A DNA stretch of 64,000 nt from a virus: IMG/VR virus record IMGVR_UViG_3300042894_005670; one strand, 5' to 3'. The position numbers were made by a program, and so were the translations under genes. Position 1 is the stretch's first letter; every line of letters begins with the position of its first letter. The notes beneath the pieces are model-generated. The model did no database searches, was not told the origin of the DNA, and worked only from the letters and a program-made list of their open reading frames with translations. Below are positions 1 to 64,000 of the stretch, one piece after another.

Positions 1-308
1 CTTAATGGATTAAATTGAAACGCTTTAAATCCACGATCATTAATACTAGTAAGTGGCACAGTTTCTAGGTCACCAAATTCAGGTTCGCCTATCAGTATTT
101 GCCAATCTAGAGGCATCTTGATAATTTCATCTTGGATACGTAATACTAGCGCAGGACTGTTAAATGATTCTAAAAATATAAGTGGTATAAAAAAGTAATC
201 AACTGCATTGGGATTACTATTATCTAATATAGCAAATCGTAAGTCATCAATTTCTTCAGGTAGATTCTCTAAATTAAATTTTGTATCATCCAATAATAAT
301 ATGTTCAT
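1..308 (-). CDS. Phage hypothetical protein, 3' end beyond window (MNILLLDDTKFNLENLPEEIDDLRFAILDNS...)
   Basis: Manual translation; ATG 308-306 overlaps the uvsW TGA (ATGA); frame open to the window edge. Confidence 0.75.
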   Translation of the reverse strand, partial: MNILLLDDTKFNLENLPEEIDDLRFAILDNSNPNAVDYFFIPLIFLESFNSPALVLRIQDEIIKMPLDWQILIGEPEFGDLETVPLTSINDRGFKAFQFNPL

Positions 309-1762
309 TTATAGTTCAACTTTTCCATTGTAAATGGATAATTCGCTTCTTTGTAAAATGACTTTCTCTGTGTCAAGTGACGTTTTGAAAATTTACAACT
401 TGAAGTAATATCCCAAATTTGCACAAAGTCCTTATCCTCAGCTTTACGCAAACCACGTCCTATACTCTGTATAACACGTACAAAACTCTTCCCAGGCTCA
501 ATAAACACCAAATTAAAAATCCTTGGTATATTAATACCCACTGCTGCTACACCATACGTTGCAATAATTATCTTTTCATCCTGTATAGCAACATCTTCAT
601 ATTCTTCTTTACGCTTTTTATTACTTGTATTACCACTGACAAATACTGCGTTAGATAATCGTTTGGCTAATTCTTTTCCTGCAGTAATACGATCAACCAA
701 GACTAGAGTATTACCACTTTCCACAATATTGTCAATAAGTTTAGCTATCATGTTTAAACGATCTTCTTGCTCTAGCAAATATTTTAATTCACTTTGGTAG
801 GTTTTAAATTCAGCAAAATCTTGTAACTGCACGACATTGACATGACATGTTGCAAGAACGCCACGATCTTGCAAATCTGTTGCTGCTAACCTATTGATGA
901 CAGGACCGATACACGTAAACAATGCCTCTGACGCAAACTTTTCTTTTGGTATCGTACCTGTTAAACCCCATCGTATACATATTTTTGATAACGACCCACT
1001 TAACATTGCCTTTAAAATATCTGCTTTAGCCATGTGGCATTCATCAATCACTAACGCCACAACATCTTGTATGAACTCTTCTATGGTGATATCACCAACA
1101 CCATCTTGAGTGTTTTTAATAATATTGTTCAAGCTTTGCCATGTAACAATAGTATGTTTATGTCCAAGCTCTTTTCTATCACCAAAGTATACACCAACAT
1201 CTAAACTTAAATTTTTATAATCGTCTTCTGTTTGTGTAACTAATGATTTATTAGGAACGATAACAATGGTTCTACCATATGGTTCGCAACGATTACTCAA
1301 TGTTGCTGTGATAAGTGTTTTACCTGCGCCTGTAGCAACTTCCTGTACACATTGTGGATTGGATAAAAACTGATTGGTAATGTCAATTTGATAATCACGT
1401 AAAATAACAGGCTCACCTGCCTTAGGATGACCTGTAGGCCATGTTGCACTTGAAAAAGTATGCTCATCAACCTTTTCAAAAGTAAACGATTGCCCATAAT
1501 CACGTATATCGTCTAATTCAATGTCATAACCATTTTGCTCAAGATAGGGAACAATTTGATCTAATAAATTGATGTAAGTAGCACCACCCAAAGTAAAGTA
1601 TGATGTTTTACCATTCCATCGACCAAGCTTAACCATAGGCATAAACCTAGCCCCAGGTATCTCATACTCAAATTGTTTCACTAGGTATTTTCGGTCATCA
1701 AGATGAAGTCCTTCTATTTTTGCATTGACTTCATCTTTTACAATAATTTTTGCAGTAGGCAT
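305..1762 (-). CDS. uvsW: UvsW-like SF2 DNA helicase
   Basis: Q motif LRDYQ, Walker A ATGAGKT, DECH box, GLTGT, QSIGRGLR motif VI. Confidence 0.92.
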   Translation of the reverse strand: MPTAKIIVKDEVNAKIEGLHLDDRKYLVKQFEYEIPGARFMPMVKLGRWNGKTSYFTLGGATYINLLDQIVPYLEQNGYDIELDDIRDYGQSFTFEKVDEHTFSSATWPTGHPKAGEPVILRDYQIDITNQFLSNPQCVQEVATGAGKTLITATLSNRCEPYGRTIVIVPNKSLVTQTEDDYKNLSLDVGVYFGDRKELGHKHTIVTWQSLNNIIKNTQDGVGDITIEEFIQDVVALVIDECHMAKADILKAMLSGSLSKICIRWGLTGTIPKEKFASEALFTCIGPVINRLAATDLQDRGVLATCHVNVVQLQDFAEFKTYQSELKYLLEQEDRLNMIAKLIDNIVESGNTLVLVDRITAGKELAKRLSNAVFVSGNTSNKKRKEEYEDVAIQDEKIIIATYGVAAVGINIPRIFNLVFIEPGKSFVRVIQSIGRGLRKAEDKDFVQIWDITSSCKFSKRHLTQRKSFYKEANYPFTMEKLNYK

Positions 1763-1782
1763 GGGTCTATATATTTATAAGT

Positions 1783-1810
1783 AGTATACCAATATTTTAA
1801 ATACTGTCAA
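1783..1810 (-). promoter_or_regulatory. Sigma70-like promoter for uvsW, followed by a TATAAATA late-type element at 1772-1779
   Basis: TTGACA-16 nt-TATACT on the minus strand. Confidence 0.55.
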
Positions 1811-1811
1811 T

Positions 1812-1843
1812 AAAAAAGGAGTAATTGGTTACCCAATTACCCC
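1812..1843 (-). terminator. Intrinsic terminator after the P-loop ATPase gene
   Basis: GTAATTGG/CCAATTAC stem followed by a T6 tract on the minus strand. Confidence 0.7.
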
Positions 1844-1863
1844 AAGTTACTACAGGAGATAAC

Positions 1864-2937
1864 TTAACGATCCTTGTACATTAGTGTACGTTCAACAACT
1901 TGCTTCCAACGATCACCCTTACGTACCATATAATCAGCTACATATACAAAGGTACGTAAACTAAAACTTTTAAATCTAGTAGCATTAGTTTCAACATAGT
2001 CAAACAATTGATTAACTTGTTCAGTGGTTAAGTCAAAGTTAGCAAAGAACCCACCATCATCTTGCAAATCTTCATGCAACTGCTTTGCACGTAGCACAAT
2101 GTGTCTAGCTGAGGAACACTGTACTTCAATGGATTTCCAACGTGTTTCCATAGCTTGTAAGTGGTTCTTTAAATTTGAGTCACGCATCTTATTTAAATCA
2201 AGGTTAGTGATAAAAATTAAACTACCCTTGAACACAAAACTCTCAGGAATATCTTCCCTACGTAATTGAGCACTGTTTGAACGAATGTTAATTCGACGTT
2301 CACCCGTAGTGGCTAGTGCTGCTTTCAACAAGTTTAGCATCTCAGGGTTAAAAAAGATTGCATCACAGTCATCAAACACCGTGATATAATTTGCATCACT
2401 ACCTTCGTACAAGATTTTATACAAATGCACAGGTGAATCACCTAATGAACCACGTATGATTTGAAACTTATCACGTGAACCACCGACATTAGTAAATGTT
2501 GCGTAACGGTCAAGCACTGATTCTACGATATATGTTTTACCGCTACCACCTCCACCACAAATAAACAATCCACCTTTTTCCTCACCACGTAGCATATCTT
2601 CAATATGCTCCTCAAGGTTTTCAAAATCTTCTCTAAACCACTGCTTGATTTGTTCATCAGTAGGTTCAGGCTTAGTTACAACAGGTTCGTCTGCTGTAAA
2701 TTTTACAGGTGCTTTTTTAGGCACTGTAACAGTATTATTATCAGTTATTTCACAATTAGTTACCACAATAGTAGGTTTCTCCGAAATTTTTCCGCTTGGT
2801 TTCACCAACAAGCGATCTTTGTTTAGTACAACATATTCGTTAGGACGGGTACCTGGTTGGTGAATTTGAAACTTAGTACCGCTAGGAATAGGCTTATCAA
2901 AATACTGACCTTCAAACACAGTAATAAACTTGGGCAT
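1864..2937 (-). CDS. P-loop (AAA+-like) ATPase, probable early gene
   Basis: Walker A GGGGSGKT, Walker B ITVFDDCD, sensor IFITN. Confidence 0.75.
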   Translation of the reverse strand: MPKFITVFEGQYFDKPIPSGTKFQIHQPGTRPNEYVVLNKDRLLVKPSGKISEKPTIVVTNCEITDNNTVTVPKKAPVKFTADEPVVTKPEPTDEQIKQWFREDFENLEEHIEDMLRGEEKGGLFICGGGGSGKTYIVESVLDRYATFTNVGGSRDKFQIIRGSLGDSPVHLYKILYEGSDANYITVFDDCDAIFFNPEMLNLLKAALATTGERRINIRSNSAQLRREDIPESFVFKGSLIFITNLDLNKMRDSNLKNHLQAMETRWKSIEVQCSSARHIVLRAKQLHEDLQDDGGFFANFDLTTEQVNQLFDYVETNATRFKSFSLRTFVYVADYMVRKGDRWKQVVERTLMYKDR

Positions 2938-2970
2938 CTTTAGCTCCGTTGTTTGTCAATCGATTTGAGT

Positions 2971-2999
2971 AGTATAGCAGGGTGTTGAAACTTTGTCAA
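2971..2999 (-). promoter_or_regulatory. Sigma70 early promoter
   Basis: TTGACA-17 nt-TATACT with TG extended -10, upstream of the ATPase (GGAG RBS). Confidence 0.75.
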
Positions 3000-3332
3000 C
3001 TAACGAATACTGTAAGGGTCAAGAAACACTCGTCCATCGTTAGTAACATACAAATACTCTACATTAGGAACATTACCTATAGGGCGATAATAAGCGATTT
3101 CACCATCATGTCCATCTTCATCATAAAGTACATCGTAGCAATCAACTTGCTTAAAACGTACTTCTTTACCTGTATGATGACTAGTTACAAAAAACTGTTG
3201 CGGGAATCTACCACCAAAATACGTATTAGATAAACTTAAAACTTTATTTGTTTTATCAAAGTCACAATATTGAAGGGGTATACGTTGAAGTTCCATACTT
3301 GCGTCCTTTGTTAAGATATAAGTATGATACAT
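3000..3332 (-). CDS. Hypothetical protein
   Basis: 110-aa ORF in a tight operon. Confidence 0.6.
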   Translation of the reverse strand: MYHTYILTKDASMELQRIPLQYCDFDKTNKVLSLSNTYFGGRFPQQFFVTSHHTGKEVRFKQVDCYDVLYDEDGHDGEIAYYRPIGNVPNVEYLYVTNDGRVFLDPYSIR

Positions 3333-3614
3333 CTAAATAAACACTTTTGTCAATACTTTCTTTTTCTGTGGTTTTAATGATACACTAAAATGTGTTGCTT
3401 GTTCTTTAGTCACAACTTTTTCGGCAAGATACTGATATTTTACTTTAACTTCAGCTTCTTTAAAAATCTGTCGCACCGTGTCTAATTTATCCACTGACAC
3501 ACGATAAAAACCATGTTGTAATAGATAATCAGCTAATTCTTTATCACCTGACAAACCAACTGCTTGCCATAACGTAAAATTGTTTTTAATAGTTGATGCC
3601 TCAATATGTGCCAT
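3333..3614 (-). CDS. Hypothetical protein
   Basis: 93-aa ORF abutting neighbours, GGAG RBS. Confidence 0.6.
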   Translation of the reverse strand: MAHIEASTIKNNFTLWQAVGLSGDKELADYLLQHGFYRVSVDKLDTVRQIFKEAEVKVKYQYLAEKVVTKEQATHFSVSLKPQKKKVLTKVFI

Positions 3615-3615
3615 T

Positions 3616-4272: not shown

Positions 4273-4317
4273 ATGGGTAATCTCCATGTAAATTTTCGCT
4301 ATTGTAGCAAAAAGATA

Positions 4318-4345
4318 ATAAAAAAGCACAGACTAGCTGTGCTTT
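4318..4345 (-). terminator. Intrinsic terminator
   Basis: AAAGCACAG/CTGTGCTTT inverted repeat with T tract. Confidence 0.75.
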
Positions 4346-4367
4346 AATAGATTGAAATTATCCTAAA

Positions 4368-4646: not shown

Positions 4647-4675
4647 AATTTTCTCCTTGTGTGTGTATGTCTATG

Positions 4676-4966
4676 TTAGGCTTTTTGTTCTGCACGATTT
4701 TGTGCAGTCCAGGCATCCCAACCTGCCTTATACCAATCAATACTAAACGGATTCATTATTTTTTCAATTTTTGTATGTAAAAACTCTCTATTACAAGTAG
4801 TGATAATATTTGTAGTAGTTTCTAGTGCAGTATTTAAAAATTTACTTTGAGCCTCAATGTAAATTAACATATTATTTTTGAGGTCAGTGTGCTTGACATA
4901 TTTTTCAACAAATTGCTTTTTAGCATTTTGTACACTGTCAATAAAAAGTGAAGGTTGATTAATCAT
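4676..4966 (-). CDS. Phasin-like amphipathic helical protein (tentative)
   Basis: 96 aa, helical amphipathic pattern FIDSVQNAKKQFV...YIEAQSKF; neighbouring DUF3563-like gene and TGC-rich operator. Confidence 0.4.
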   Translation of the reverse strand: MINQPSLFIDSVQNAKKQFVEKYVKHTDLKNNMLIYIEAQSKFLNTALETTTNIITTCNREFLHTKIEKIMNPFSIDWYKAGWDAWTAQNRAEQKA

Positions 4967-5049
4967 ATTGCATTCCTTTCTGTGTATGTGTCTAAATTGA
5001 ATACACCTAATGTGTACTCATATGTATTTATACAATAAAAGTTATTGTA

Positions 5050-5178: not shown

Positions 5179-5179
5179 A

Positions 5180-5394: not shown

Positions 5395-5398
5395 TTTG

Positions 5399-5569: not shown

Positions 5570-5600
5570 TTTCAATCTCCATGTGTATGTGTATCTATTT

Positions 5601-5623: not shown

Positions 5624-5634
5624 AAGACTTGGGA

Positions 5635-10236: not shown

Positions 10237-10478
10237 TAATTTACGCTCATGTTCCTACTACAATTTTTACCACAATTTTCTGTCCAATTAGTTGATCCTT
10301 GGCAATTAGTAAAATAACGATAATTTCCACCATCAACAAATCTATATACAGTGCATCCATCATGAGTAAACAATTTGTCCACTTTAAAGTCTACACCTGC
10401 TGCAGTAGTTGACTCAGGTTGTTTTGCACTACAAGAAATTAAAGTAAGCATTGCCAAAAATATAAGAAGGTACCTCAT
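10236..10478 (-). CDS. Lipoprotein (DUF4884-like)
   Basis: Lipobox LISC; KLFTHDGCTVYRF.DGG..RYFTNC. Confidence 0.65.
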   Translation of the reverse strand: MRYLLIFLAMLTLISCSAKQPESTTAAGVDFKVDKLFTHDGCTVYRFVDGGNYRYFTNCQGSTNWTENCGKNCSRNMSVN

Positions 10479-10714
10479 TTTTCAATCCCAAAGTGTTTTA
10501 ATATAATACGTTCACATCTTTTATATAATGCTTGATCCACTTTATATTCAATATCGCTTTCATAAAGGTTGGGTTCTAATGATAGTAAGCATTCTTGTAT
10601 AATGAGATCAGCAAACTTTTCTATAGCCTTGTGATCATAGTCATCCATACTATCCCAACAACCTTGTGCTGTCAGTCCTGCACGATACATTAGATCCTCA
10701 AGGCGACTATTCAT
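10475..10714 (-). CDS. MNERIKEL-family small protein, paralog 2
   Basis: EKFADLIIQEC...LKHFGIEK. Confidence 0.65.
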   Translation of the reverse strand: MNSRLEDLMYRAGLTAQGCWDSMDDYDHKAIEKFADLIIQECLLSLEPNLYESDIEYKVDQALYKRCERIILKHFGIEK

Positions 10715-10935
10715 TCTTCAACTCCGAAATGTTCTCTAATTTCTTCGTAAATATCTAATGCCTCGTGATCGGCTGCAACATTGGCACATTCCTTCACAAT
10801 CAACTCGGCGAACTTTTCTGTCCATTCATGAAGGAAAGTAAAATCTACCTCTCCACCATCATCAACAAAACTACCAAATTTTTCTTTGGTGTCATCCCAA
10901 GCCTGTTCAGCAAGTTCTTTAATTCGTTCGTTCAT
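10711..10935 (-). CDS. MNERIKEL-family small protein, paralog 3
   Basis: MNERIKELAEQA...EKFAELIVKEC...EHFGVEE; start moved to 10935. Confidence 0.7.
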   Translation of the reverse strand: MNERIKELAEQAWDDTKEKFGSFVDDGGEVDFTFLHEWTEKFAELIVKECANVAADHEALDIYEEIREHFGVEE

Positions 10936-11025
10936 TCTTCTAATCCTAATTCTTTTGCCAGCCCCAAACAAAACCAGTGACAAAACCTATCACATAACAG
11001 GCCAGCAATGCCAAACCAATCTCGT

Positions 11026-11190
11026 TCATTCTTTAACTCCTTGAACCATTTCATCCAATTCTTTTGCCAAGTCATTCATACGATAGCGACCTTCTATCTT
11101 GGAACCGATGTAGCGATTATCATAGTAATCACCGTTTTGGCGTTCACGCTCGTCTAAATACTCTTCTAACACTTCAGTAAACTTTCTCAT
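11026..11190 (-). CDS. Hypothetical protein, 54 aa (MRKFTEVLEEYLDERERQ...)
   Basis: Manual translation; ATGA coupling on both sides. Confidence 0.6.
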   Translation of the reverse strand: MRKFTEVLEEYLDERERQNGDYYDNRYIGSKIEGRYRMNDLAKELDEMVQGVKE

Positions 11191-11435
11191 TCTTCAACTC
11201 CGAAATGTTCTTTTAGACCTTGAATATTATCATAACACTTTTCAGCACAAATTTCAAAATTTGATTGAAAAACAGGATCTTCTTCTGATTCAGAAAGACC
11301 AAACAATCTTTCTGCTTCATTGTCGAGATATTGGCAACATTCTCTGACAATCAACTCGGCGAACTTTTCCGGGATAATAAACCCATGCTCTGGATCATAA
11401 CATTGTTCAGCAAGTTCTTTAATTCTCTTGTTCAT
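11187..11435 (-). CDS. MNERIKEL-family small protein, paralog 4
   Basis: MNKRIKELAEQC...EKFAELIVREC...KEHFGVEE. Confidence 0.7.
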   Translation of the reverse strand: MNKRIKELAEQCYDPEHGFIIPEKFAELIVRECCQYLDNEAERLFGLSESEEDPVFQSNFEICAEKCYDNIQGLKEHFGVEE

Positions 11436-11529
11436 TATACTTTCCTATTAAGGACAAACCCTTTAAAGTAGATAAAAAAAGCTTTAGCTACATGCTTCAT
11501 TTGACGTAAATAATATTGACGGTATGACA

Positions 11530-11724
11530 TTATTCCATTCCAAAATGTTCTTTAATGGCTCGTGCAGTGGCACTATCACCATTAAACACTGCAAGTTTAA
11601 TACATTCAAAAAGAATTAAATTAGCAAATTGCTCTAGATCGGGTTGTGCAAATGGAATCTCAAAGCCTAACCTGTCATACTTTCTTGTCGCCTGTTCAGC
11701 TAATAACTTAATTTGTTCATTCAT
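11530..11724 (-). CDS. MNERIKEL-family small protein, paralog 5
   Basis: MNEQIKLLAEQA...EQFANLILFEC...IKEHFGME. Confidence 0.7.
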   Translation of the reverse strand: MNEQIKLLAEQATRKYDRLGFEIPFAQPDLEQFANLILFECIKLAVFNGDSATARAIKEHFGME

Positions 11725-17813: not shown

Positions 17814-20534
17814 CTATTCAAAAGTAAATAGTGAGTCAAATTTATTGTTTATGTTTGTATTTTTTTCTAAATCCCATCCTAATACACCAAGTAGATTGTC
17901 AATCTTTTTATCTACTAATGTATATTCCATTTCACGATCATCAAATGGTAATTCAACAAACCATTGTGGTAATCGTAACTCATCAGTAGGGTACGCAATA
18001 CTTGTAAAATTTAACGGGTTGTTTTTTAACTTACAAACAATAATTTTAGAACCATTGGTAATCTTTGTACTGTAATTATCATGGTTTAGTTGTCGAAGAA
18101 AATTCCAATTAAGCGAGGCACGAACGTGGCCTGGCATGTTGACTTTACCATCTTTACTACGGTTTAATTTTTCTTCATACAACGCTAACTTATTAACTGC
18201 TTTAGGACTACCTTTATTCCAACTTGGCATTTCACGTAGTTTATGTTTGAAAGTTATAATCTTTTTAATAATGTCATCACGTGAAGATCCTCCTAGAACA
18301 TCTTCTAGTATACTGAATAAAAACTCTTGTACAAATTTTGGTGTGTCAGCACGTTTTAGATCAAGACCCATTGCCTTAATCTTACCTAACTTACCATCAT
18401 TGTCTAAACGTTTACCTTCTTTGTCATAAATGTTAACTGCATATCTTTTCTTAGTAATAAACAATCCACGATCAGCAACTAATTCACGTCCTGCTTTAAT
18501 AATAGAACCACTTGATTTAGGACAATGAAAGGTATCATACATAAATTGTGGAAAACTTTGATTGACTGTATTGCCTAACTCATCATATATAGCAATTGCA
18601 TTTTCTTTAGTCCACGTCTTTTTTAGTTCAGCATCTTGTGACCATATAGGCCATCCACTGAAATAACATGAGTCAGTGTCACCATAAACAATAGCATCAC
18701 CTGTATGATCATATTCGCCTGTAATTAATTCATTTAAATACGCACTCATATGTTTTACAATTTGTCTACCTGTTAATGTAGTACTTTGTCCAATACGTTT
18801 ATCGTAAAATCGACAATGTTGATTCAATAGCGCACCATAGGCAGAGTTAAGTAAAATCTTACGTACAAGTTGTCGTTTATCATAAAACTCAGCTTCTTCG
18901 GGGGTTTTTGCTTCTTTAAGTTGTTTTTGAATTTGTTTACGTTCGTTATACCACCTCGTCAACAACCCAGGTATCACCCCCTCTACTTCATTAGTAAAAA
19001 TAGTACCATTGGCACTAAGTATCCATGGTTTACCACTGTTAAAAATTAGTTCGTGTATTTCCGCAGCACTTGCTACATCACTGCCACCACTTTCCCAATC
19101 AATAGTAATCATAGTATGACGTTCTTTATTCATCACCGCCGTATATTCTAAACTACCAAACAATCCTTCCCATAGGATAGGACCATCCTCGCCTTCTACC
19201 TCAGTATCTTCAGATGCATTGCGATTTTTTTTCTTTTCTCGTGCTAGTTTTTGGCTTTTATCATATAAGTATTGATCAGTTAAAGTTTGTTTTAGTTGTC
19301 CAACTATTGTTTCAGGTGCCATGTTTAGTGCACGAATCGTCGATGGATATAGCGAGTTTAAATCAACTGCTGCTATCCATTCATGTATACCTTTTTTAGG
19401 ATAAGCAACATATGCACCCGCAGCTTTACTTTCATCATCAGTATCACGTGTAGGTTTGTCAGGTATGATTAACCCACGTGAATGTGCTTCGTTAATCACA
19501 GCTTGTTCAATCATAGCTACACTGCCCATCACGGTAGGTAATAATACGGTATTTTGATGTGCAATGCTATTGGCTAAGTCTAAAAATTTTAGTTTGTTAT
19601 GAATCTTAAAAAGAAGCATCGTATCTTGACGGTTATACTCTAAGAATGTTTTCCAATCATTATTGTATAGTTGATCAAGTGTACCTTCGTAAGGTGTTTT
19701 CTTTTCACCTACTTCCATTTCACCAATATAATCAAGTTTATAACTATGACGTTGTTCGTAATTATATTTTTTATATAACTCAAGGTAATCCATGTGTATA
19801 CGACCAACTAAATCATAAGTAACTTGTTTTTGATCAAATTGAACAAACTCACGTTGTTTTGGTGGTTGGTTGAGTAAACAAAAACGGTAAGTATCTTCTT
19901 TCGATAATACTCTTGTTACACGATTAACCATATATGGTATATCATAGCCACCACTATTCCATCCTGTTAACACATCAGCATCTTCAATCAGTGTAAAAAA
20001 TGTATCAAACATTTCTGCTTCATCTGCAAAAACAAAGGTATTTTCAAATGATGATGTAATTTCTATTATTTCATCTTGTGATAATCCTTTTGGTGGCACA
20101 CATAGTGTAATCAGTGTATTGCACCAATCAAGATACATTGAAATAGAATTGACTGCATTAAACGGATCACTTGGTGGTGCGAATCCATATTCAGGGTCAA
20201 AGTTTACCTCAATGTCAAAAAAACATGTATGTAATTTTGGTGGTGGAGCATCTAAATAATTATCTGCCAAACATCGAAAGACAGGATTGATATCACTTTC
20301 ATAAGTTTTTTTCTTAGATAATACACGCAATTCTTTTTGAAATTCAGAGCGTTTTGATGTGACGAATTTAGTAAGTGATTCACCATCTACACCACGATAT
20401 TTTCCTTTTGGGTCAGGATAATAAAAAATATATTTGGCTTTGTATTCTTGGTAAACACGCTTACCTTTATCATCACGTTCTACAATGTAAATGATATCTT
20501 TGTCACGATCTAACAACGCATCAACATAACTCAT
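17814..20534 (-). CDS. Family B DNA polymerase (T4 gp43-like)
   Basis: Exo I FFDIEV, Exo II GWNS..YDIPY, Exo III YNRQD; DLNSLYPS, KILLNSAYG, YGDTDS, KKRY; C-terminal clamp-binding-like DSLFTF. Confidence 0.96.
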   Translation of the reverse strand: MSYVDALLDRDKDIIYIVERDDKGKRVYQEYKAKYIFYYPDPKGKYRGVDGESLTKFVTSKRSEFQKELRVLSKKKTYESDINPVFRCLADNYLDAPPPKLHTCFFDIEVNFDPEYGFAPPSDPFNAVNSISMYLDWCNTLITLCVPPKGLSQDEIIEITSSFENTFVFADEAEMFDTFFTLIEDADVLTGWNSGGYDIPYMVNRVTRVLSKEDTYRFCLLNQPPKQREFVQFDQKQVTYDLVGRIHMDYLELYKKYNYEQRHSYKLDYIGEMEVGEKKTPYEGTLDQLYNNDWKTFLEYNRQDTMLLFKIHNKLKFLDLANSIAHQNTVLLPTVMGSVAMIEQAVINEAHSRGLIIPDKPTRDTDDESKAAGAYVAYPKKGIHEWIAAVDLNSLYPSTIRALNMAPETIVGQLKQTLTDQYLYDKSQKLAREKKKNRNASEDTEVEGEDGPILWEGLFGSLEYTAVMNKERHTMITIDWESGGSDVASAAEIHELIFNSGKPWILSANGTIFTNEVEGVIPGLLTRWYNERKQIQKQLKEAKTPEEAEFYDKRQLVRKILLNSAYGALLNQHCRFYDKRIGQSTTLTGRQIVKHMSAYLNELITGEYDHTGDAIVYGDTDSCYFSGWPIWSQDAELKKTWTKENAIAIYDELGNTVNQSFPQFMYDTFHCPKSSGSIIKAGRELVADRGLFITKKRYAVNIYDKEGKRLDNDGKLGKIKAMGLDLKRADTPKFVQEFLFSILEDVLGGSSRDDIIKKIITFKHKLREMPSWNKGSPKAVNKLALYEEKLNRSKDGKVNMPGHVRASLNWNFLRQLNHDNYSTKITNGSKIIVCKLKNNPLNFTSIAYPTDELRLPQWFVELPFDDREMEYTLVDKKIDNLLGVLGWDLEKNTNINNKFDSLFTFE

Positions 20535-24655: not shown

Positions 24656-26845
24656 TTATGATGAGCCAAAAAACTTATTCATCAAAGCTTTTTGTTTTTT
24701 AGGTTTTGCCCCAAGTACAGGACTAATATTAGCCACCTTATCAGTGCCACTTAAGTATTTTGGGTTACGCTTGTCCTCTTTAGTATAACGTGGGTCTTTA
24801 GGGTCATACTCAGTACCAAATGCACTCTTAACTTGTGACGAATTGAATATGATATAAGACATATCTATATAGTCAGCTTGTTTTTGCAAATACTGATGCG
24901 CTTCTTGTTCAGCTTCTTCAGGTGTATCGCCTTCACCAATAGGTAAAGTAGGCATAACATTATCAGGTAAATATGCTACGTATTTTGATCCTTCTTTTTT
25001 AATCGTAAAATTAATGCGCTCATCAGGTCGCAATGTTCGCTTACCTTCATTAGTATTACGATATTGTATACCATCATATCCCGCATCAAACAATGAACGT
25101 GCTAATTCAGCATAGATTGTTGCTTTACAGTCATCCCAATCCATATCACGATCCCTACGAATTGCTTCAAGTTCGTTATATTCTTTTTGGTTAATAATCT
25201 TTTTCTTAAATAAAAAATTCATAACTTGACGTAAATGCTCTTCATCAGGACCAAATATGTCAGGCATAGTAAAAGGGTTTGTAATCTTTAAAAATACAGG
25301 AATTACACGTGCTCCACTATATTTGGCAAACTCATTAGCTGCTTCACGATTGCCAAAATGTATACCAAAATCACGATATAAATTTTTAAACGTTGAAAAA
25401 TCATTAGATGTACCATGATAAACAATCATAGGAGCACCATTACTATCAACTACTTTACTATTGCCAAACCATGCTCTTAAATTTTCCTCACGACCTTCTA
25501 CTAATTCTTTTAAAAAACTCATGGACTCTTTGTTGATATTAGGATTAGTTGGGTCAAATGTACCATCATTGTAAACGGATTTGATTTGCTCAGGGCGTAA
25601 TGCTATGTACCACGTTTTGGTTCTGCCTTTTATAACGAAGCCATCATTACCGTTTTCTGTAGCCTTTTTAAGAAGATTACGCACTTGGACGTATCCCTTA
25701 CTAGAATTAGACATTGACACCCATTTGTCCACGGATATAGAAAGCGGATTTTTAATAGATAAGAAAACGGGGATGATGTTGGCACCTTCTTGTTGAGCAT
25801 ACCCGCCAGCATCCGAGGCTGACGTTGAGAAAAAGATGCCTAGATAATCAGTTGCATTTGGCACACTGCTGCCTTTTGGCGCAGACTTGTCAAACGCTGC
25901 AAAGTTTCTGAGCGTACCGTGATACACCACTAACGGATCGCCTCTTTCATCAACCACCTTACTATTACCAAACCACTTATTAAAATTATTTTTTCTATCA
26001 TTACTATCTTCTTTAGTAATGTCAGGTTCATATTTACCAAATGTACCTACATTATATATAGACTTGATTTGATACTGTTCAAATGGACGATAAGTTAAAA
26101 TAATCGGTGTGCCCTCAGCACCAAGTTCTAACTCTTTTCCATCACGTGGTTCATATTTTTGGGAACCTGCTTCAAAAACATCTTTTAAAATGACACCATC
26201 ATATCCCATACCTTGTAGGTAACTTACAATATCTTCACTATCTGCAATAGTATATGTATCTATAACCGTATTGTCTAGTGCATCCTCAATAGAACTAATA
26301 TCGTCTGCTTCACCCCATGTGTCAATTTGATCTGAAAGGTCACGAAATCCTTTTATTCTAAAACCATCATCGTCATAAGCATTGATTGAAAATCTTGCGC
26401 CTGTTTTGTATATAATTTCATCTAAATCATATATCATATAGGACACATCTCTCCAACCTAATTTTTTACGTCCACCATCAGGTACATTTAGATCACTAGG
26501 CACCGTATTAATAAAATCTATTAATGATATTGTTTCGTTATAACGGGTAAGATCTAATGGTTTAACAATTCGTAAATACGCTGCGATTACAGTAGAACCA
26601 CTACCATATTGTCTTGTGTCTAAATGTCTAGAGTATACACTAGCTGCTGCAGGGTCATTAGTAAAAGATGGTACTGCACGACCTTGAGTTAATTTAAATT
26701 CTGTGGCAGCAGGTCGCTTACGTGTACCACGATATACAACAAGTGGGTTGCCATTACTATCAACCACTTTACTATTACCAAACCAACTACGAAATGCTTT
26801 TGTCTCTCTAGCTTTTTGGTATTCTAATAATTGTCCAATTTTCAT
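24656..26845 (-). CDS. Three tandem ART-PolyVal-like ADP-ribosyltransferase domains
   Basis: WFGNSKVVD..G.P..VY(H/R)GT...L.I..P...G.DG...Q(I/V)KS repeated three times. Confidence 0.8.
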   Translation of the reverse strand: MKIGQLLEYQKARETKAFRSWFGNSKVVDSNGNPLVVYRGTRKRPAATEFKLTQGRAVPSFTNDPAAASVYSRHLDTRQYGSGSTVIAAYLRIVKPLDLTRYNETISLIDFINTVPSDLNVPDGGRKKLGWRDVSYMIYDLDEIIYKTGARFSINAYDDDGFRIKGFRDLSDQIDTWGEADDISSIEDALDNTVIDTYTIADSEDIVSYLQGMGYDGVILKDVFEAGSQKYEPRDGKELELGAEGTPIILTYRPFEQYQIKSIYNVGTFGKYEPDITKEDSNDRKNNFNKWFGNSKVVDERGDPLVVYHGTLRNFAAFDKSAPKGSSVPNATDYLGIFFSTSASDAGGYAQQEGANIIPVFLSIKNPLSISVDKWVSMSNSSKGYVQVRNLLKKATENGNDGFVIKGRTKTWYIALRPEQIKSVYNDGTFDPTNPNINKESMSFLKELVEGREENLRAWFGNSKVVDSNGAPMIVYHGTSNDFSTFKNLYRDFGIHFGNREAANEFAKYSGARVIPVFLKITNPFTMPDIFGPDEEHLRQVMNFLFKKKIINQKEYNELEAIRRDRDMDWDDCKATIYAELARSLFDAGYDGIQYRNTNEGKRTLRPDERINFTIKKEGSKYVAYLPDNVMPTLPIGEGDTPEEAEQEAHQYLQKQADYIDMSYIIFNSSQVKSAFGTEYDPKDPRYTKEDKRNPKYLSGTDKVANISPVLGAKPKKQKALMNKFFGSS

Positions 26846-27282: not shown

Positions 27283-29728
27283 TCTTTTTACCTTCTAGCA
27301 TATTCTTTTGTGCTTCGTGACCTTCCATATACTCTGCTACATCTTTTATTAGTTCATCAGCACGTGTAATGTGGTCGGAGACCCATCCTGGCAAGCCTTG
27401 TCCTTCACTTCTACCTTTAATTATCTTAGCAAGTGACATTGAACTTTTTACGGTAGATAATAAACTGTTTACTGCCATTGATACTTCATGGTCAGGTTCC
27501 ATATGCTTAGCTTTAACTACATCACCACGCATACGCATTTTACCAGGCATCACTATGAGGTCTTGTTCACTTAAATCAGCTTCCTTCAATGTGTTAGGTA
27601 TAGCACCCGTATTGTTTAAGAAAAACTGATCTGTTACACCTGCTTTAATTTTTAAATCTCGCACTTGCTCTCTATACTCGTTAATTTCTTCCGCAATAGC
27701 ACGACCTAATATTTGACCAATTTGTTCAGGTGTTGCAGGTACATCAGGTCCTGTACCACCAAATTTTGTATTTACTAACCTAGGGAAGTAATTTCTAACA
27801 ACACTAGCTAAACGATTAACTGTTTCACTCGTTAAAGCTTTGTATTGTTGTATATAATTATCATATGAAATATTGTTAGCTAATGCTTTACCACCTGCGG
27901 CTATCGCTGCACCTGCCGCTGCAGCTTTACCTAAACTTCCTAAAAATCCTCTACGTGCAGGATCAGCTTCATTGATACTTTCTTCATCAGAAAATTTTGC
28001 ATCACGTAATGCATCTTCAAAAATTTCATCTAATCCATAAATTGCACTTTCTAATTCATGCTTGGCTTCATAAACACGGCTATTATGATAATTAAAATCA
28101 TCCATGTCTAATGCATAAGCTTTTACTAAATTTTCAATTTCTACCATAATTTCATTTACGGTATTATCGTATGAAATTCCTTTAGTAATTTTTCTAGCTT
28201 GCATTAAGGCACGTTCCAAATCATCTGCACGACCTTCGTTAATGCTTTCGTTCTTAGATTTATTACCCCAATTCTTTGCACCTGCTTTACGACATTTAAC
28301 TAATGCACCACTAGCATATGCACTAGGCCAAATTTTGTAACGACTTTTTACCTTATGGTAGCATGCATCTTTTTTACCTTCAGTAAATAATGCTTCACTG
28401 ACCATTTCACCATTACATTGTGGGCAAATACCCTCTTTGACATAATACTCAAGACTTTCATTCTTAGTCTTGTTGCTTACCATATCAGCCGCACCTTGAC
28501 GTTGTGGGTTTGGATCTTCACGGCGTTTTTTACGTACTGCTGCTGCAATAGCTTTTTTACCACCACTAGCACGTAATGATGCTGCTTTTTCTTTACTTAG
28601 GCATTTTGGTTTACCTTCACCTGCTTTACGTTCTCCACACTTACCAATACGCTCACCTTTAGTATTGTAGCGATCCCATCCACCGCCACCTGCACCACCT
28701 TCACCGCCTTTACCAAACCATGCACGTAAATCTTCGCTTAATTGTTCAGCAATTTCACTTTCACTGAATTCTTTGCCAACTAGTTTATCACCTGTAACAC
28801 CTTGAATTAGTGCCCATGCACGTTGAAATTCTTTTTCTTTAATTAATTGATTTAGGATTTGTTTTTGACGTGGATCTGCCATTTTAAAGAATTTAACCAT
28901 TTCCATTGCACCGATATTACCTTCATAACCTAGTTCCATCAATGCTTCTTCATTAGTATGAGATTGGTATTCATCATAATCCATATACATATCGGTATCA
29001 CGATCATAATACTTACCTTCTTTAGGATCGTAATAAACAATCTTACCTGATTTTAAACGAAATGGTCCTTCTAACCCTTGGTCTGACATATCTGTATAAC
29101 GTTCTTTATCAATTGGAGTTGATATTTTCCAACCTTCCGCCACACCTTGCGTCTCTGGACCATCCATCCAACTCTGCGTTAGTTTAATCATATCTAACGG
29201 AATGCGTTTTTTATCGTGAATTTCCATTGCCTTCAATCTTGCGGATTCTTGTGATGGGAACGGAATGGCATCAAACTTCTTATCTCTAAGAACTTTACCT
29301 TTAACTCTTACATACCAGTTTTCAGAGCCTTCCGCCACACCTTCTTTCCTAATACCAAGTGTACTCGCAGGATTACCTCCACCAAACATACTAGCAAATG
29401 CATCACTTGCTTGTTGTTTAGTATCTGCTTTTTGTTGTTTTTTTACTGATTTTTTACTCGTAACCTTTTTAAGCATTGTTTTAAACTTATCACCATCCGT
29501 TGTTGGATTAGTAGCTTCTGCCACCGTCTTTTTCTTTTTGCTACCTGCCCAATTACCCCACTCTGAAGCACTGCGCTCTACACTATTCATGTATTTTTTA
29601 CCACTATCTGCAGTCTCATCCGTTTTTTCACGTTTTACTGTTTCTTTGAATAATGGTGTGGCAACAGTAGCAACTGAACCTGCTGTCATTTCATTAATTT
29701 TATCTAAGGTTTTACGAATATCTGACAT
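27269..29728 (-). CDS. Modular virion-internal polyprotein (about 10 modules joined by hydrophobic-x-E motifs)
   Basis: INE|M, VAE|A, GVAE|G twice, LME|L, LSE|D, FTE|G, INE|G, INE|A, LKE|A separating unrelated segments; TAAATA upstream. Confidence 0.65.
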   Translation of the reverse strand: MSDIRKTLDKINEMTAGSVATVATPLFKETVKREKTDETADSGKKYMNSVERSASEWGNWAGSKKKKTVAEATNPTTDGDKFKTMLKKVTSKKSVKKQQKADTKQQASDAFASMFGGGNPASTLGIRKEGVAEGSENWYVRVKGKVLRDKKFDAIPFPSQESARLKAMEIHDKKRIPLDMIKLTQSWMDGPETQGVAEGWKISTPIDKERYTDMSDQGLEGPFRLKSGKIVYYDPKEGKYYDRDTDMYMDYDEYQSHTNEEALMELGYEGNIGAMEMVKFFKMADPRQKQILNQLIKEKEFQRAWALIQGVTGDKLVGKEFSESEIAEQLSEDLRAWFGKGGEGGAGGGGWDRYNTKGERIGKCGERKAGEGKPKCLSKEKAASLRASGGKKAIAAAVRKKRREDPNPQRQGAADMVSNKTKNESLEYYVKEGICPQCNGEMVSEALFTEGKKDACYHKVKSRYKIWPSAYASGALVKCRKAGAKNWGNKSKNESINEGRADDLERALMQARKITKGISYDNTVNEIMVEIENLVKAYALDMDDFNYHNSRVYEAKHELESAIYGLDEIFEDALRDAKFSDEESINEADPARRGFLGSLGKAAAAGAAIAAGGKALANNISYDNYIQQYKALTSETVNRLASVVRNYFPRLVNTKFGGTGPDVPATPEQIGQILGRAIAEEINEYREQVRDLKIKAGVTDQFFLNNTGAIPNTLKEADLSEQDLIVMPGKMRMRGDVVKAKHMEPDHEVSMAVNSLLSTVKSSMSLAKIIKGRSEGQGLPGWVSDHITRADELIKDVAEYMEGHEAQKNMLEGKKNVKR
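29133..29343. repeat. Exact 16-bp direct repeat CCTTCCGCCACACCTT (encodes GVAEG on the minus strand) flanking a 65-codon module
   Basis: 29133-29148 and 29328-29343, 195 nt apart. Confidence 0.9.
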
Positions 29729-29772: not shown

Positions 29773-31182
29773 TTAGAACTTACCTGATGGCTTTGCTATG
29801 GGTGGTATACCACTACGTTTAATCTTACCTAAACCTAATTTTATAGCATTTTGTCTAATACTATCAGGTTTAATATCAACCGTTAATGCTGTTTTAAATC
29901 TTGGATCGTTTTTTTCTGCTTCACTAGGGATATATCCTGAAGCCTCATTAACATTAAATGTAGGATCAACTTTCTGACGTTTCATTCCTTTGGGTTGGTT
30001 AGGGTCAAGAGGATCAATATCCGTAGTAGATAAACCTGTTGCTTCTAAATCATCAATATATTTGTGTTCAGTATCTTCATCACCAAATGTTAATATGGTG
30101 CTAGGTGGTCCTTTACCAAAATCATGCTTACCTAAACCCTTAAGATTACTAATATGTTGTCCTAACTTATACCAATCATACACATCACTTACATCTACTC
30201 TAACCGTACCTTTTGGCATAGTGGGTTTAAACTCAGGACCAGGTGGGTTTCCGTTAGGGTCATAATCATCACGTAATTTACTATAATGTTTTCTATTTTT
30301 AGCCAAGTTTTTGTATGCCATTTCAGTAGCTAAACTACGCACACTAGTATTTGCCATTTCAAACTTTATACCACGCTTTAATTCACTTATGATATCATTT
30401 CTACTACAACCATGCATCTTTGCTAATTCACTAATAGTATATACAGGTTGTTCAACATTTTTACCAACCTTTTGCTCCATACTCATCTTTTCACTATGTA
30501 TTTCATTATAAGTATCACGCAGACGATGCAATAAACCACTAGTACGGAACGCTTTAAATGCTATATTTTCAGGAGAAAATTCACCTTGTGCATCTAAACC
30601 TGCTTTTCGATATTTTCTAATTGTATCTAGTAAGTCTTCAATCTTGTCTATATCTCTAGCTTGTAGTGCTAATTCAGCTACTTGTGCTAATTTTTCAAAC
30701 TTTAATTGACTTGCTGGTTCGTTGATATCAGCAACACGTTTGGTAGGAAATTTTATCCAACGATCTTTTAGTACACTGTACTCACCACGACTAACAACAG
30801 GATCAGCCGTATCTTGTACGTATAATTCTACTTCATAACCGCCTATAGTAATATCATGTTGCAAATTCCATATGATTTTTTTACTATGAAATAACTCACT
30901 ATAAATTTCATCATTTTTTAATTTCTTAATATCAACTAAAATATGTAAGTCAATATCACTATGTGGCGTATAGGTATATGAAGCATTGCTACCACTTAGT
31001 GTAATATCTTTAACATCTATATTACTTACACCAAGATGCTCCATAAAATCATCTGCAATTTCTAATAACCGATCACGCACAGCAGGAATCATGTGTTCAT
31101 CCCTAAAAATAGCAGGGTTTAACTGATCATGAAACTGTATAGCGTTTGATAATTTAAATTGTTCTAATTCTTTTAAATTCAT
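29773..31182 (-). CDS. Pol-beta-type nucleotidyltransferase fused to further modules (incl. degenerate DUF5661-like)
   Basis: LSGSNASYTYT..SDIDLH, VELYVQ; start MNLKEL after TAAATA. Confidence 0.75.
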   Translation of the reverse strand: MNLKELEQFKLSNAIQFHDQLNPAIFRDEHMIPAVRDRLLEIADDFMEHLGVSNIDVKDITLSGSNASYTYTPHSDIDLHILVDIKKLKNDEIYSELFHSKKIIWNLQHDITIGGYEVELYVQDTADPVVSRGEYSVLKDRWIKFPTKRVADINEPASQLKFEKLAQVAELALQARDIDKIEDLLDTIRKYRKAGLDAQGEFSPENIAFKAFRTSGLLHRLRDTYNEIHSEKMSMEQKVGKNVEQPVYTISELAKMHGCSRNDIISELKRGIKFEMANTSVRSLATEMAYKNLAKNRKHYSKLRDDYDPNGNPPGPEFKPTMPKGTVRVDVSDVYDWYKLGQHISNLKGLGKHDFGKGPPSTILTFGDEDTEHKYIDDLEATGLSTTDIDPLDPNQPKGMKRQKVDPTFNVNEASGYIPSEAEKNDPRFKTALTVDIKPDSIRQNAIKLGLGKIKRSGIPPIAKPSGKF

Positions 31183-60626: not shown

Positions 60627-60682
60627 ATTTGTTTCCTTAATTCTTCACAATGGTATATAGTATTTAACATTTTTATCTAAAT

Positions 60683-60856
60683 TTAGGTTAATTTTGTAAA
60701 TCGCCATTATTGGATGATGCTGTAGTGGACATTTTCAATTTGTGTGACACTTGTACTTACAACTGTTGGTGTACCAATAGTTGGAGCGTTAAAAACAAAA
60801 GCACTTGTTAGTGTTATTAACCCATAAATTGTTATACCTGATAGCGTAAATTTCAT
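60683..60856 (-). pseudogene. Truncated, frameshifted remnant of an FN3-fibre paralog
   Basis: MKFTLSGITIYGLITL...NAPTIGT...TQI, then TASSNNG in another frame; matches APTIGT...TQIDVPYTASSSNGG of the upstream gene. Confidence 0.65.
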
Positions 60857-60868
60857 TTTTAAATATTC

Positions 60869-63800
60869 TTATCTAGTTGTATTAGCAGTATTTGTAGATG
60901 GGAATGATCTACCTGTTCCCCATATAATACGTACAGCACCGTTGCCACCCCTACCTCCATGATTTGGGCAATTTACAACGAAACCACCTCCACCACCTCC
61001 ATATAGCCCACCTGCACCTCCACCATTTGCACCATTTGTACCGCTAGATCCGCCACCGCCACCTGTATTAGGAGATGATGCACCTACTCCATTTGCACCT
61101 TGTCCATATATTCCAACTCCACCACCTGCACCCGCACCTGCACCCCAAGGATTACCTGTAGTGCTGATCATACCTCCACCTGCTCCTCCACCTGATCCAT
61201 TTCCTGCACTTACACTTGCATTGTTAGAACCGTCACCACCTGCTCCCGAATAACCTCCTGCGCCACCTCCGCCACTTGCAAACCAACCAGGCGCACATCG
61301 AGCACCATTTCCTCCATTACCACCACCACCACCAATAAATGTTCCACCACGAACATTAGTGGGTGAAGCATTTTCACCACCATTGCCTCCACCCCCTGAA
61401 ACAGTTGTAGAACTTATAAAATAACTAGGGGAACCGTTAAGCCCTGGGGCACGATTAGTTGCAGGGTTTCCTCCCGCTCCTACAACTAATGTATAAGAAT
61501 TTTGAGGTACAATAGGGATATTATTTTTATATCCTAAACCGCCACCACCGCCTCCTGAAGAACCCGCACAACCACCTGCTCCTCCACCGCCACCACCACC
61601 AACTGCAACTACATTGACATTAGATACTCCCACAGGCGCAATCCAAGTATAAGTCCCAGGTGTTGTGTACTCTGCTTGAGCGTTAGCACCACCATATGTT
61701 ATTGAATTACTTGCAGGACTTTGTGGTCCTGCGCCAAATTCATTCACTGCATATACTTTAAACGTGTAAGCAGTACCTGAAGTAAGTGAAAAATTATTGC
61801 TATAAACAATACTACCACTACTTGCTTGACTTAAAGTTGCTACTACGTTTCCTGGCGTTGATATCGCTCTATGACTTGTAATAGTTCCACCGTTAGCACT
61901 TGCAGCAGTAAATGGTACCGTTACTGTGCCTGTCGAAGTTGTTACTGTCCCTATGGAAGGTGTTGTCGGTAAATTTATACCTACGTTTGTTGACGGAAAT
62001 GAACGTCCTGTGCCCCAAACAATACGTACTGCTCCATTACCTCCTCTACCACCAAATTGAGCGGGGTTATTTCTACTCCAACCTCCACCTCCTCCACCAT
62101 ACAAACCACCACCTAAAACCCCACCTGCGTTGTTACCACCGTTTGTACCATTGCTACCACTAGATCCACCACCACCACCAACTCCTTCACCACTACCACC
62201 TGCACCACTTGGTCCCTCACCATATACACCTGTGCCGCCGCCACCGCCACCACCTGAGGAAAATGGGTAAGAGCCTACGCCCCCACCACCACCGCCACCT
62301 GATCCACTTAAAGCAGAAACAGTATTTGCGCTGCCATTAGCACCATTGCCACTGTAACCACCTGCCCCACCTCCACCTCCTGTAGACTGCCATCCTCCTG
62401 AGCCAAATAGACCGTGACCTCCTGTTCCTCCACCATTTCCAACATGCCCCCCTCCAGCCGCATTCGCTTGAGAGTGTCTACCTGTTCCTCCCGTTCCACC
62501 ATTACCTGCTACAGTAGAGGTATTAATAAAATAACTTTGACCACCACTAGAACCCCCGCTATTATTACCGCCTGCACCGCCTGATCCTGCAACAACAGTA
62601 TAAGATGACCCCCCAGTAACAGATATTGCATTTCTATAACCTAAACCACCACCACCCCCAGCTCCAACAGCCTGCCCAGGTGTTGCTCCACATGGACTAC
62701 ATGCGCCTGATCCCCCACCGCCTCCACCACCAATTGCAACTACGCTAACACTAGTAACACCCGCAGGTGCTACCCATGTGTAAGTTCCCGCTATATATAT
62801 TGAAGCATCAGAACCTGCGCCACTAGGTGCTGTAACTAAACTGCTTGGGTTTGAAAGTGCTCCTATACCCACAGAATTAGTTGCATATACCCTAAAAGTA
62901 TAACTTTGTCCTGCAATAAATGCATTGCTCATGGTAATTGTACCGCTACTTGCTTGACTAGCAGATACAGTAAAATTATCAGGGTCACTTATAGCAGTAT
63001 GAGTTGTTATAGGACTACCACCATTTGCAGGTGCAGTAAATGGCACAGATGCGGTACTACCTGAAAAAGACACGGTACCAACTGTTGCTTGGCTAGGTGC
63101 ATTAGCAGGTACTACTGCATTACTTGCTGCACTATTAGGTGAATTACCAACGCTATTTGTTGCATATACAACAAACGTATAACTAGTTCCTTGTGTTAAA
63201 CCTGTTACAGTAATAGATCCACTACTTGCTTGAGATATTGTTCCTGTAATCGAACCAGGTGTACTTACCGCTGTATAACTTGTTATAGCGCTACCACCAT
63301 TACTTGATGATGCTGTATATCCCACGCTTACAGACGTATTACTCAAAACAGAAGCTGTACCAATTGTTGGAGCAGTTGGGACACTTACAGGAGTTATAGC
63401 ATTACTTGCTGCACTATTAGGTGAATTACCTACACTATTTGTTGCGTATACTACAAACGTATAAGATGTCCCTGCTGTTAATCCGCTAACACGTATTGTT
63501 CCGCTACTTGCTTGTGACAATGTCCCCGTAATTGACCCAGGTGTACTTACCGCTGTATAACTTGTGATTGCGTTACCACCATCACTTGATGATGCTGTAT
63601 AGGGCACATCAATTTGGGTGGAACTTCCACCTACAAGTGCTGCTGTACCAATCGTTGGAGCAGTTGGTACTACTGCAGGAGCGATAGAATTACTTGCTGC
63701 ACTATTGGGTGAATTACCAATACTATTTGTTGCATATACAACAAAAGTATAACTTGTTCCTTGTGTTAATCCACTTACACGTATAGTACCGCTACTTGCT

Positions 63801-64000
63801 TGTGATAATGTACCCGTAATTGACCCAGGTGTACTTACCGCTGTATAGCTTGTTATAGGTGAACCACCATTGCTTGATGATGCTGTATATGGAACATCTA
63901 TTTGTGTACCACTTCCACTAACACGTATTGCTGTACCAATTGTTGGCGCACTTGCTACAAGACCCGCATATATTGAGTTACTTGCTGCACTATTTGGTGA
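60869..64000 (-). CDS. FN3-repeat, glycine-rich fibre protein (5' end beyond window)
   Basis: Frame open to 64000 (the 63607 start is internal); APTIGT...YTF.VYA.N..G FN3 units; two Gly-rich modules ending GAVRI.WG.GRSFPSTN. Confidence 0.8.
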   Translation of the reverse strand, partial: SPNSAASNSIYAGLVASAPTIGTAIRVSGSGTQIDVPYTASSSNGGSPITSYTAVSTPGSITGTLSQASSGTIRVSGLTQGTSYTFVVYATNSIGNSPNSAASNSIAPAVVPTAPTIGTAALVGGSSTQIDVPYTASSSDGGNAITSYTAVSTPGSITGTLSQASSGTIRVSGLTAGTSYTFVVYATNSVGNSPNSAASNAITPVSVPTAPTIGTASVLSNTSVSVGYTASSSNGGSAITSYTAVSTPGSITGTISQASSGSITVTGLTQGTSYTFVVYATNSVGNSPNSAASNAVVPANAPSQATVGTVSFSGSTASVPFTAPANGGSPITTHTAISDPDNFTVSASQASSGTITMSNAFIAGQSYTFRVYATNSVGIGALSNPSSLVTAPSGAGSDASIYIAGTYTWVAPAGVTSVSVVAIGGGGGGGSGACSPCGATPGQAVGAGGGGGLGYRNAISVTGGSSYTVVAGSGGAGGNNSGGSSGGQSYFINTSTVAGNGGTGGTGRHSQANAAGGGHVGNGGGTGGHGLFGSGGWQSTGGGGGAGGYSGNGANGSANTVSALSGSGGGGGGGVGSYPFSSGGGGGGGTGVYGEGPSGAGGSGEGVGGGGGSSGSNGTNGGNNAGGVLGGGLYGGGGGGWSRNNPAQFGGRGGNGAVRIVWGTGRSFPSTNVGINLPTTPSIGTVTTSTGTVTVPFTAASANGGTITSHRAISTPGNVVATLSQASSGSIVYSNNFSLTSGTAYTFKVYAVNEFGAGPQSPASNSITYGGANAQAEYTTPGTYTWIAPVGVSNVNVVAVGGGGGGGAGGCAGSSGGGGGGLGYKNNIPIVPQNSYTLVVGAGGNPATNRAPGLNGSPSYFISSTTVSGGGGNGGENASPTNVRGGTFIGGGGGNGGNGARCAPGWFASGGGGAGGYSGAGGDGSNNASVSAGNGSGGGAGGGMISTTGNPWGAGAGAGGGVGIYGQGANGVGASSPNTGGGGGSSGTNGANGGGAGGLYGGGGGGFVVNCPNHGGRGGNGAVRIIWGTGRSFPSTNTANTTR
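63121..64000. repeat. Highly similar tandem 282-288 bp FN3-coding repeats
   Basis: TACTTGCTGCACTATT at 63121, 63403, 63691 and 63979. Confidence 0.9.

Follow-up and report, generated by a model that had tools for sequence, protein, structure and literature searches.

The DNA analysed here, referred to throughout as the window, is a 64,000-nucleotide stretch from the IMG/VR virus record IMGVR_UViG_3300042894_005670, and its positions 1-63906 correspond to positions 9775-73680 of the 73,680-base record (73.7 kb, or 74 kb). It has a G+C content of 34.8%, carries nearly all of its genes on the minus strand, and encodes a family-B DNA polymerase (17814-20534, minus strand), used below as the ortholog test gene, with 42-50% identity to the polymerases of cultured jumbo phages. 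A megablast search of 10 kb of the window against GenBank phages returned no match, which argues that there is no cultured close relative, and metagenomes of lakes and other fresh waters, drawn from 14 studies, contain identical or near-identical DNA. Together with the polymerase similarity, these metagenome matches identify the window as part of an uncultured freshwater jumbo phage, for which CheckV gives the record a completeness of 21% and implies a full genome of about 350 kb. In this work we show that the whole 73.7-kb record has been purged of four short DNA words, CCAG/CTGG, CCGG, CGCG and GGCC, and we relate the copies that remain to protein-coding constraints and to short cassettes acquired by exchange with other phages.

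Results

Expected word counts were obtained from Markov models and from a codon null in which synonymous codons were shuffled within each gene, thereby preserving both the proteins and the codon usage of each gene; longer words were scanned using programmatically generated palindromes, and the comparison set comprised 80 IMG/VR loci surrounding polymerase homologues. Exact counting within the window gave 26 CCAGG and 23 CCTGG, or 49 CCWGG, with CCAG/CTGG found only 11 times outside CCWGG (CCAG at 10958, 10974, 11002, 25806, 29315, 62454, 62613 and 62658; CTGG at 11390, 29155 and 30714) and a single CCGG at 11369. Over the record as a whole CCAG/CTGG occurs 64 times, as against 242 and 314 occurrences expected under zero-order and maximal-order Markov models, respectively, and its component words are common (568 copies of CAGG/CCTG, with CCAC, CCAA and GCAG all frequent). 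Under the codon shuffle, CCAG/CTGG outside CCWGG was observed 11 times versus 231 +/- 11 expected (an observed/expected ratio, O/E, of 0.05) and CCGG once versus 33 (O/E 0.03), and the CCWGG total was 51 versus 56. A previous sequence-only reading, made by eye, had claimed that CCAG/CTGG and CCGG are avoided except as CCWGG; with ratios far below 1 under codon-aware and Markov models alike, the depletion holds, and the coordinates given in that reading were correct to within one base, the sole omission being 62658. Two further words that it had missed are also depleted, CGCG being absent (0 versus 29 expected) and GGCC reduced to 16 copies versus 48, with only 6 avoidable GGCC versus 37.6 expected (O/E 0.16).

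The purge extends across the window (1-64000) and includes non-genic DNA, where CCAG and CTGG together occur twice in 6 kb outside called genes versus 15.6 expected. Depletion of CCAG/CTGG is present in all three reading frames, on both strands, and with every neighbouring base on the 5' and the 3' side. In addition, several longer words are purged (observed versus expected: CAGCTG 0 versus 15; TTCGAA 2 versus 13; SAGCTS 2 versus 31; YTCGAR 3 versus 24; GWCGWC 0 versus 11), and the four tetramers do not account for these depletions. CGRYCG (0 versus 8.8) and RGCGCY (3 versus 13) are likewise depleted in the record.

Within genes, the loss of these words is evident in the choice of synonymous codons. 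GCT is used at 3% before GGN versus 35% elsewhere, ACT at 1% versus 40%, and TCT at 0% versus 30%, while CCA falls from 56% elsewhere to 2% before G[ACT]N; CAG stands after a C-ending codon (NNC) in 0/61 cases, and the codon before Trp ends in C in just 2 of 288 cases. Most of the replacements are third-position A/T transversions that leave the encoded protein unchanged (NCT to NCA, CCA to CCT), which explains the excess of CAGG/CCTG and argues for selection among synonyms. The words presumed to arise by deamination stand at expectation (CTAG 148 versus 142; TTGG 405 versus 403), so that CTAG is not common here, as had been supposed, and two positions that carry CCAG in relatives read CTAG in the window.

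The survival of CCWGG has its origin in the encoded proteins. Across the record, an in-frame Pro-Gly codon pair underlies 50 of the 52 CCWGG; in the window such pairs account for 48 of the 49 sites (CCA-GGN or CCT-GGN, 492-63829, minus strand), nearly all of them on the minus, coding strand with one in a plus-strand gene. The CCWGG at 63825 encodes Pro-Gly as well, its gene extending beyond the end of the record. The sole exception in the window is an off-frame GCC-TGG, encoding Ala-Trp, at 4709-4713 (minus strand). Every spelling of Pro-Gly contains a purged word, since CCA-GG holds CCAG, CCT-GG holds CTGG, and both CCC-GG and CCG-GG hold CCGG; with CCAG/CTGG and CCGG both purged, the pair has no clean spelling. 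Before Gly, Pro is written CCT 25 times, CCA 25 times and CCC or CCG never, although CCC and CCG make up 10% of Pro codons elsewhere; because CCGG too is purged, the phage always writes CCW-GGN, leaving some 50 CCWGG. Outside the frame of Pro-Gly, where the word is avoidable, CCWGG occurs once versus 10.4 expected, and is thus avoided wherever the protein permits, the opposite of what a protected context would show. The remaining CCWGG are therefore a protein-forced residue of Pro-Gly rather than shielded sites. A parallel constraint applies to GGCC, for which 10 of the 17 copies in the record, and 9 of the 15 in the window (1437-51269, minus strand), are Trp-Pro pairs (TGG-CCN) forced by the protein, while CGCG, which has no forced context, is absent.

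Pro-Gly positions of the window are mostly common to unpurged relatives and their number is equal in orthologous aligned regions, which indicates that they are conserved protein features. A purge-driven loss of Pro-Gly from proteins is for these reasons not claimed, even though the overall O/E for Pro-Gly is 0.82 in this phage versus a median of ~1.4 in unpurged relatives.

Relatives of the phage serve as natural controls, and they show the purge to be specific to one phage lineage. It is shared by the closest relatives (L001-L006; 83% polymerase identity, 34.5% G+C), in which CGCG and CCGG are both absent and CCAG/CTGG outside CCWGG ranges from 1 observed versus 25 expected to 11 versus 56. 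Relatives at 60-69% polymerase identity are unpurged, including those of equal G+C content, one of which (L017) carries 168 versus 62 expected. The polymerase gene of the window retains just one avoidable GGCC besides two Pro-Gly sites and a Trp-Pro site, as compared with 13-25 purge-type words in each unpurged ortholog, and at conserved amino acids it has word-free synonyms in their place (e.g. ACT-GGT to ACA-GGA, CCA-GAA to CCT-GAA).

Other relatives have lost other combinations of words. Two (L065 and L120) are purged of CCGG without a purge of CCAG, while L119 (IMGVR_UViG_3300020044_005819, 47% G+C) has 2 CCAG/CTGG versus 48 expected and 36 CCGG versus 28. All six Pro-Gly pairs of L119 are written CCC-GGN and it contains no CCWGG, a choice that presents the forced-spelling model from the reverse side and points to CCAG and CCGG as separate targets. 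Furthermore, CGCG and GCGC are both near zero in L072, L074 and L080, and several distant relatives (L107, L114, L127-L129 and L131-L135) have no CCWGG at a normal level of CCAG.

The same purge, again with clustered exceptions, was found in a 138-kb record with no overlap with the window (G003; 34.7% G+C, 19 tRNA genes), so that it spans two whole records apart from short clusters. CGCG is absent from G003, and 29 avoidable sites remain, of which 10 lie in a G+C-richer 1.8 kb of one large gene, 6 are packed into 400 bp, and a few fall in tRNA genes. The large gene (G003:C1:42653-45724; L152 2653-5724) is a 1023-aa open reading frame (ORF) with no Pfam match and a middle of 47% G+C that holds those 10 of the 29 sites; this middle is probably an imported module.

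The residual sites of the window phage are likewise few and clustered. Only 13 avoidable sites are left in the record versus 294 expected, and 10 of these lie no more than 500 bp from another, where a null weighted by opportunity predicts 2.3 (P ~3e-4). The main cluster is a cassette at 10820-11402 (minus strand) inside an array of paralogous genes, comprising three CCAG, one CTGG, the sole CCGG and one GGCC; the segment holds 5 sites versus the 3.7 expected without any purge. Positions 10900-11369 are 94.7% identical to unpurged phages (L083/L094; 39-41% G+C), with flanks at most 74% alike. Relatives L004/L006 carry a different cassette in its place between flanks that are 95-97% identical, and the replacement cassette of the closest relative holds 7 of the 11 sites of that locus. 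The main cluster thus represents a cassette recently acquired by horizontal transfer and still unpurged.

Within this cassette, a 33-nt block (10974-11006, minus strand) with two CTGG in coding-strand sense and one GGCC recurs exactly in 13 IMG/VR contigs (L083-L095) of 34-44% G+C, including a complete 400-kb phage record. The block sits within a 47-aa hydrophobic mini-ORF, and an Rfam scan of the whole window found no RNA family, so that it is not a known RNA. The surrounding tandem array of small paralogous genes (10475-11724, minus strand; 54-90 aa) forms a variable slot whose members have motifs in common at the N terminus, in the centre and at the C terminus. Across the window and L006 (17359-18609), in which array members range from 54 to 112 aa, these motifs read 'MNxRIKELAEQ', 'KFAELIVxEC' and 'EHFGVEE', respectively, while the middles and the membership of the array vary among phages with 95-97% identity in the flanks. 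Judged by these comparisons, the array looks like a fast-turnover cassette slot.

For two further clusters, import is plausible but unproven. The first is a repeat-bounded module in an 819-aa gene (29133-29343, minus strand) with residual sites at 29155 and 29315, or 2 sites versus 1.2 expected if unpurged. In L002 the former site is present and the latter absent, and the surrounding 24.6-29.9 kb is 92-93% identical to L002 versus 77-84% in neighbouring regions. The second is the first glycine-rich domain of a tail-fibre-like gene (62052-62843, minus strand), with residual CCAG at 62454, 62613 and 62658; positions 62400-62700 hold 3 sites versus 3.8 expected if unpurged, and in L096-L101 the nucleotide alignment covers both flanks of the domain but not the domain itself.

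The tail-fibre-like protein itself (60869-64000, its gene leaving the window) contains three near-identical FN3-like repeats ('SPITSYTAVSTPGSITGT...'), two more FN3-like units and two long glycine-rich domains. Phages L096-L101 (38% G+C), which have a tail-fibre N-terminus 73-80% identical to that of the window, show the same purge; GGCC is rarer still in them (0-2 per 11-14 kb), and no Trp-Pro occurs in the fetched ORFs.

The remaining CCAG/CTGG sites are single. One is a GCT-GGC encoding Ala-Gly in an ART-PolyVal gene (25806-25809, minus strand), which is conserved in L002 and L006 and is therefore not recent, and the other is a CCA-GCA encoding Pro-Ala (30714-30717, minus strand) that is absent in L002. 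The proposal that exceptions mark recently acquired DNA accordingly stands for the main cluster, with its close match to unpurged phages in a swapped slot, and fails for 25806; the map of residual sites is clustered rather than uniform, as that proposal had implied.

Identity between the window (9190-31191) and L002/L006 is mosaic, at 92-97% in 9.2-11.8 and 24.6-29.9 kb and 77-84% around the polymerase, with the high-identity modules including the ART-PolyVal gene, a ferritin-like gene and the 819-aa gene. This pattern suggests recent exchange of these modules.

Discussion

CGCG, CCGG and GGCC are classic Type II restriction targets. From the combination of a synonymous purge, its extension into non-coding DNA and its restriction to one lineage, we infer that host restriction enzymes are the selecting agents, with CCAG and CCGG taken as distinct targets in view of the separate purges in relatives, and we consider it probable that the purge represents site avoidance against several host restriction enzymes, with CCWGG as the forced leftover. 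Selection of this kind would act both on the choice of synonymous codons and on non-coding positions, removing words of restriction-modification (R-M) type, and each lost site would make it likelier that an unmodified genome is left uncut on entry. Such a purge would halt where the protein forbids it, leaving CCWGG at Pro-Gly and GGCC at Trp-Pro, and the other residual sites would lie in short segments recently imported from phages free of this pressure. The earlier proposal of a host defence selecting on short words is supported by the same three features. Its single CCRG target is unlikely, as L065 and L120 purge CCGG without CCAG and L119 purges CCAG without CCGG; a single CCRG enzyme was rejected on account of these separate purges. 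An orientation bias of the Type III kind was also considered and rejected, the forced sites being split 25:25 between CCA-GGN and CCT-GGN with no strand bias.

The literature offers precedents for both the process and the word. Site avoidance is typical of non-temperate double-stranded DNA (dsDNA) phages (Rusinov et al. 2018, PMC6286503), and CCAG is the motif of a methyltransferase or of methylation in H. pylori A45 (hp0944) and T. phaeum (PMC10689673) and in Sporosarcina P32a (PMC5930826).

Several points weigh against avoidance of host restriction. To our knowledge no characterised restriction endonuclease cuts bare CCAG. The analysis covers only about one fifth of the phage genome, with genes called by a greedy ORF rule rather than taken from a curated annotation, and since some 50 forced CCWGG remain, any benefit requires an incremental gain for each lost site. 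Moreover, in the published survey asymmetric sites are very rarely avoided, most avoidance concerning palindromic, orthodox Type II sites (PMC6286503).

With regard to the host, the sole match in the genome collection is a metagenome-assembled genome of Crocinitomicaceae (G006, JBDNIA01) with at least 12 contigs of a related, unpurged jumbo phage at 57-73% nucleotide identity. These contigs are either bin contamination or a hint of the host of that relative; as they belong to an unpurged phage, they were set aside as uninformative on the host of the clade described here.

Among the alternatives, one holds that loss of the words keeps progeny DNA unmarked by methylation, and hence safe from the modification-dependent (Type IV) nucleases of whichever host is infected next. 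The CCAG activities in the literature are indeed methyltransferases and not nucleases, and from sequence data alone this process predicts the same purge; however, it requires two alternating kinds of host and nothing here prefers it to ordinary restriction, which leaves it unlikely. A second alternative, self-avoidance, in which nucleases of the phage shred host DNA at these words and its own copies have been removed, would equally be expected to yield a lineage-specific, genome-wide purge. No such nuclease was identified, at least four separate specificities would be needed, and the phage would stay exposed to its own enzymes at the roughly 50 CCWGG and 10 GGCC that its proteins force on it, so that we regard this explanation as very unlikely.

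The sequence-only reading had proposed a shield, in which a defence recognises CCRG and Dcm-type methylation, of host or phage origin, blocks it at CCWGG. The confinement of common CCAG/CTGG to the CCWGG context is what drew attention to this model. It is nevertheless highly improbable, given that nearly all CCWGG are forced Pro-Gly codons, that the word is depleted off-frame (1 versus 10.4), that its total matches the codon-shuffle expectation, and that relatives purge CCGG and CCAG independently. Furthermore, neither the 74-kb record nor any of five related records gave a match to the cytosine-5 methylase family (PF00145), and a broader search of the 74-kb record (~21% of the genome) for Vsr and for cytosine-5, N4/N6 or Dam-type methylases, which the sequence-only reading had recommended, also found no match. 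A candidate amino-methyltransferase is present in G003, a record with the same purge: a 340-aa protein (G003:C1:9420-10442; L149 841-1863) within the 19-gene tRNA array, with the motif order 'LDPCAGWGG ... TSPPY', a borderline N6_N4_Mtase match (26.6 versus 26.7 bits) and matches to PHROG DNA methyltransferases. This protein favours the shield on its face but does not rescue it, because off-frame CCWGG is depleted.

Finally, mutational erosion, whereby methylated cytosines deaminate and Vsr-type repair rescues CCWGG only, may be dismissed as extremely improbable despite the two CCAG positions of relatives that read CTAG in the window, since CTAG and TTGG show no excess, the replacements are mostly protein-keeping third-position transversions, the record has no detected Vsr, and CGCG and GGCC fit no Vsr logic.

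Avoidance of host restriction, if it is the correct reading, has several implications. The phage provides a clean worked example of the extent to which restriction pressure rewrites a phage genome, and a caution that an apparently protected context such as CCWGG may be purely a coding artefact of Pro-Gly. The purged set (CGCG, CCGG, GGCC, CCAG, CAGCTG and words of the TTCGAA type) would constitute a negative print of host defences that could aid host assignment in lake metagenomes, and residual sites may serve as a practical marker for recently imported phage cassettes. The recurrent purge of CCAG, in turn, points to a restriction specificity with methyltransferase precedents and no characterised nuclease. 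It is conceivable, though doubtful, that freshwater bacteria commonly carry an uncharacterised defence recognising bare, asymmetric CCAG; if so, this defence would be strong enough to have driven independent, near-complete purges in unrelated lineages of large phages (this clade, L096-L101 and L119), and might be discovered through the negative prints that phage genomes provide.

In comparison with known systems, the purge resembles the avoidance described in non-temperate dsDNA phages (PMC6286503) in being a near-complete, protein-preserving and lineage-specific loss of several words of R-M type from a lytic-type phage, and differs from the mainly palindromic, orthodox Type II sites of that survey in that CCAG/CTGG is a non-palindromic tetramer. 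A literature search of limited coverage found no paper on under-representation of CCAG/CTGG in phages. The CCAG methyltransferases (hp0944, T. phaeum and Sporosarcina P32a) establish bare CCAG as a genuine bacterial modification target; they differ from the present case in representing methylation activities in unrelated bacteria. Avoidance of the EcoRII/Dcm type concerns the same pentamer, and is seen in the distant relatives that lack CCWGG only, but the phage described here shows neither specific avoidance nor protection of CCWGG. In E. coli, according to work cited in PMC4687349, Vsr repair shapes oligonucleotide abundance such that CTAG is rare and CCAG common; the phage shows the opposite pattern, with CCAG rare, CTAG at expectation, and changes that are selected synonymous swaps and not products of repair. 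The purge is also unlike the regional purge of T5, which is tied to first-step transfer, as sites are lacking throughout the 74-kb record and G003. Site avoidance as such is already well known, and what sets this case apart is that it is unusually clean and strong and has an asymmetric tetramer among its targets.

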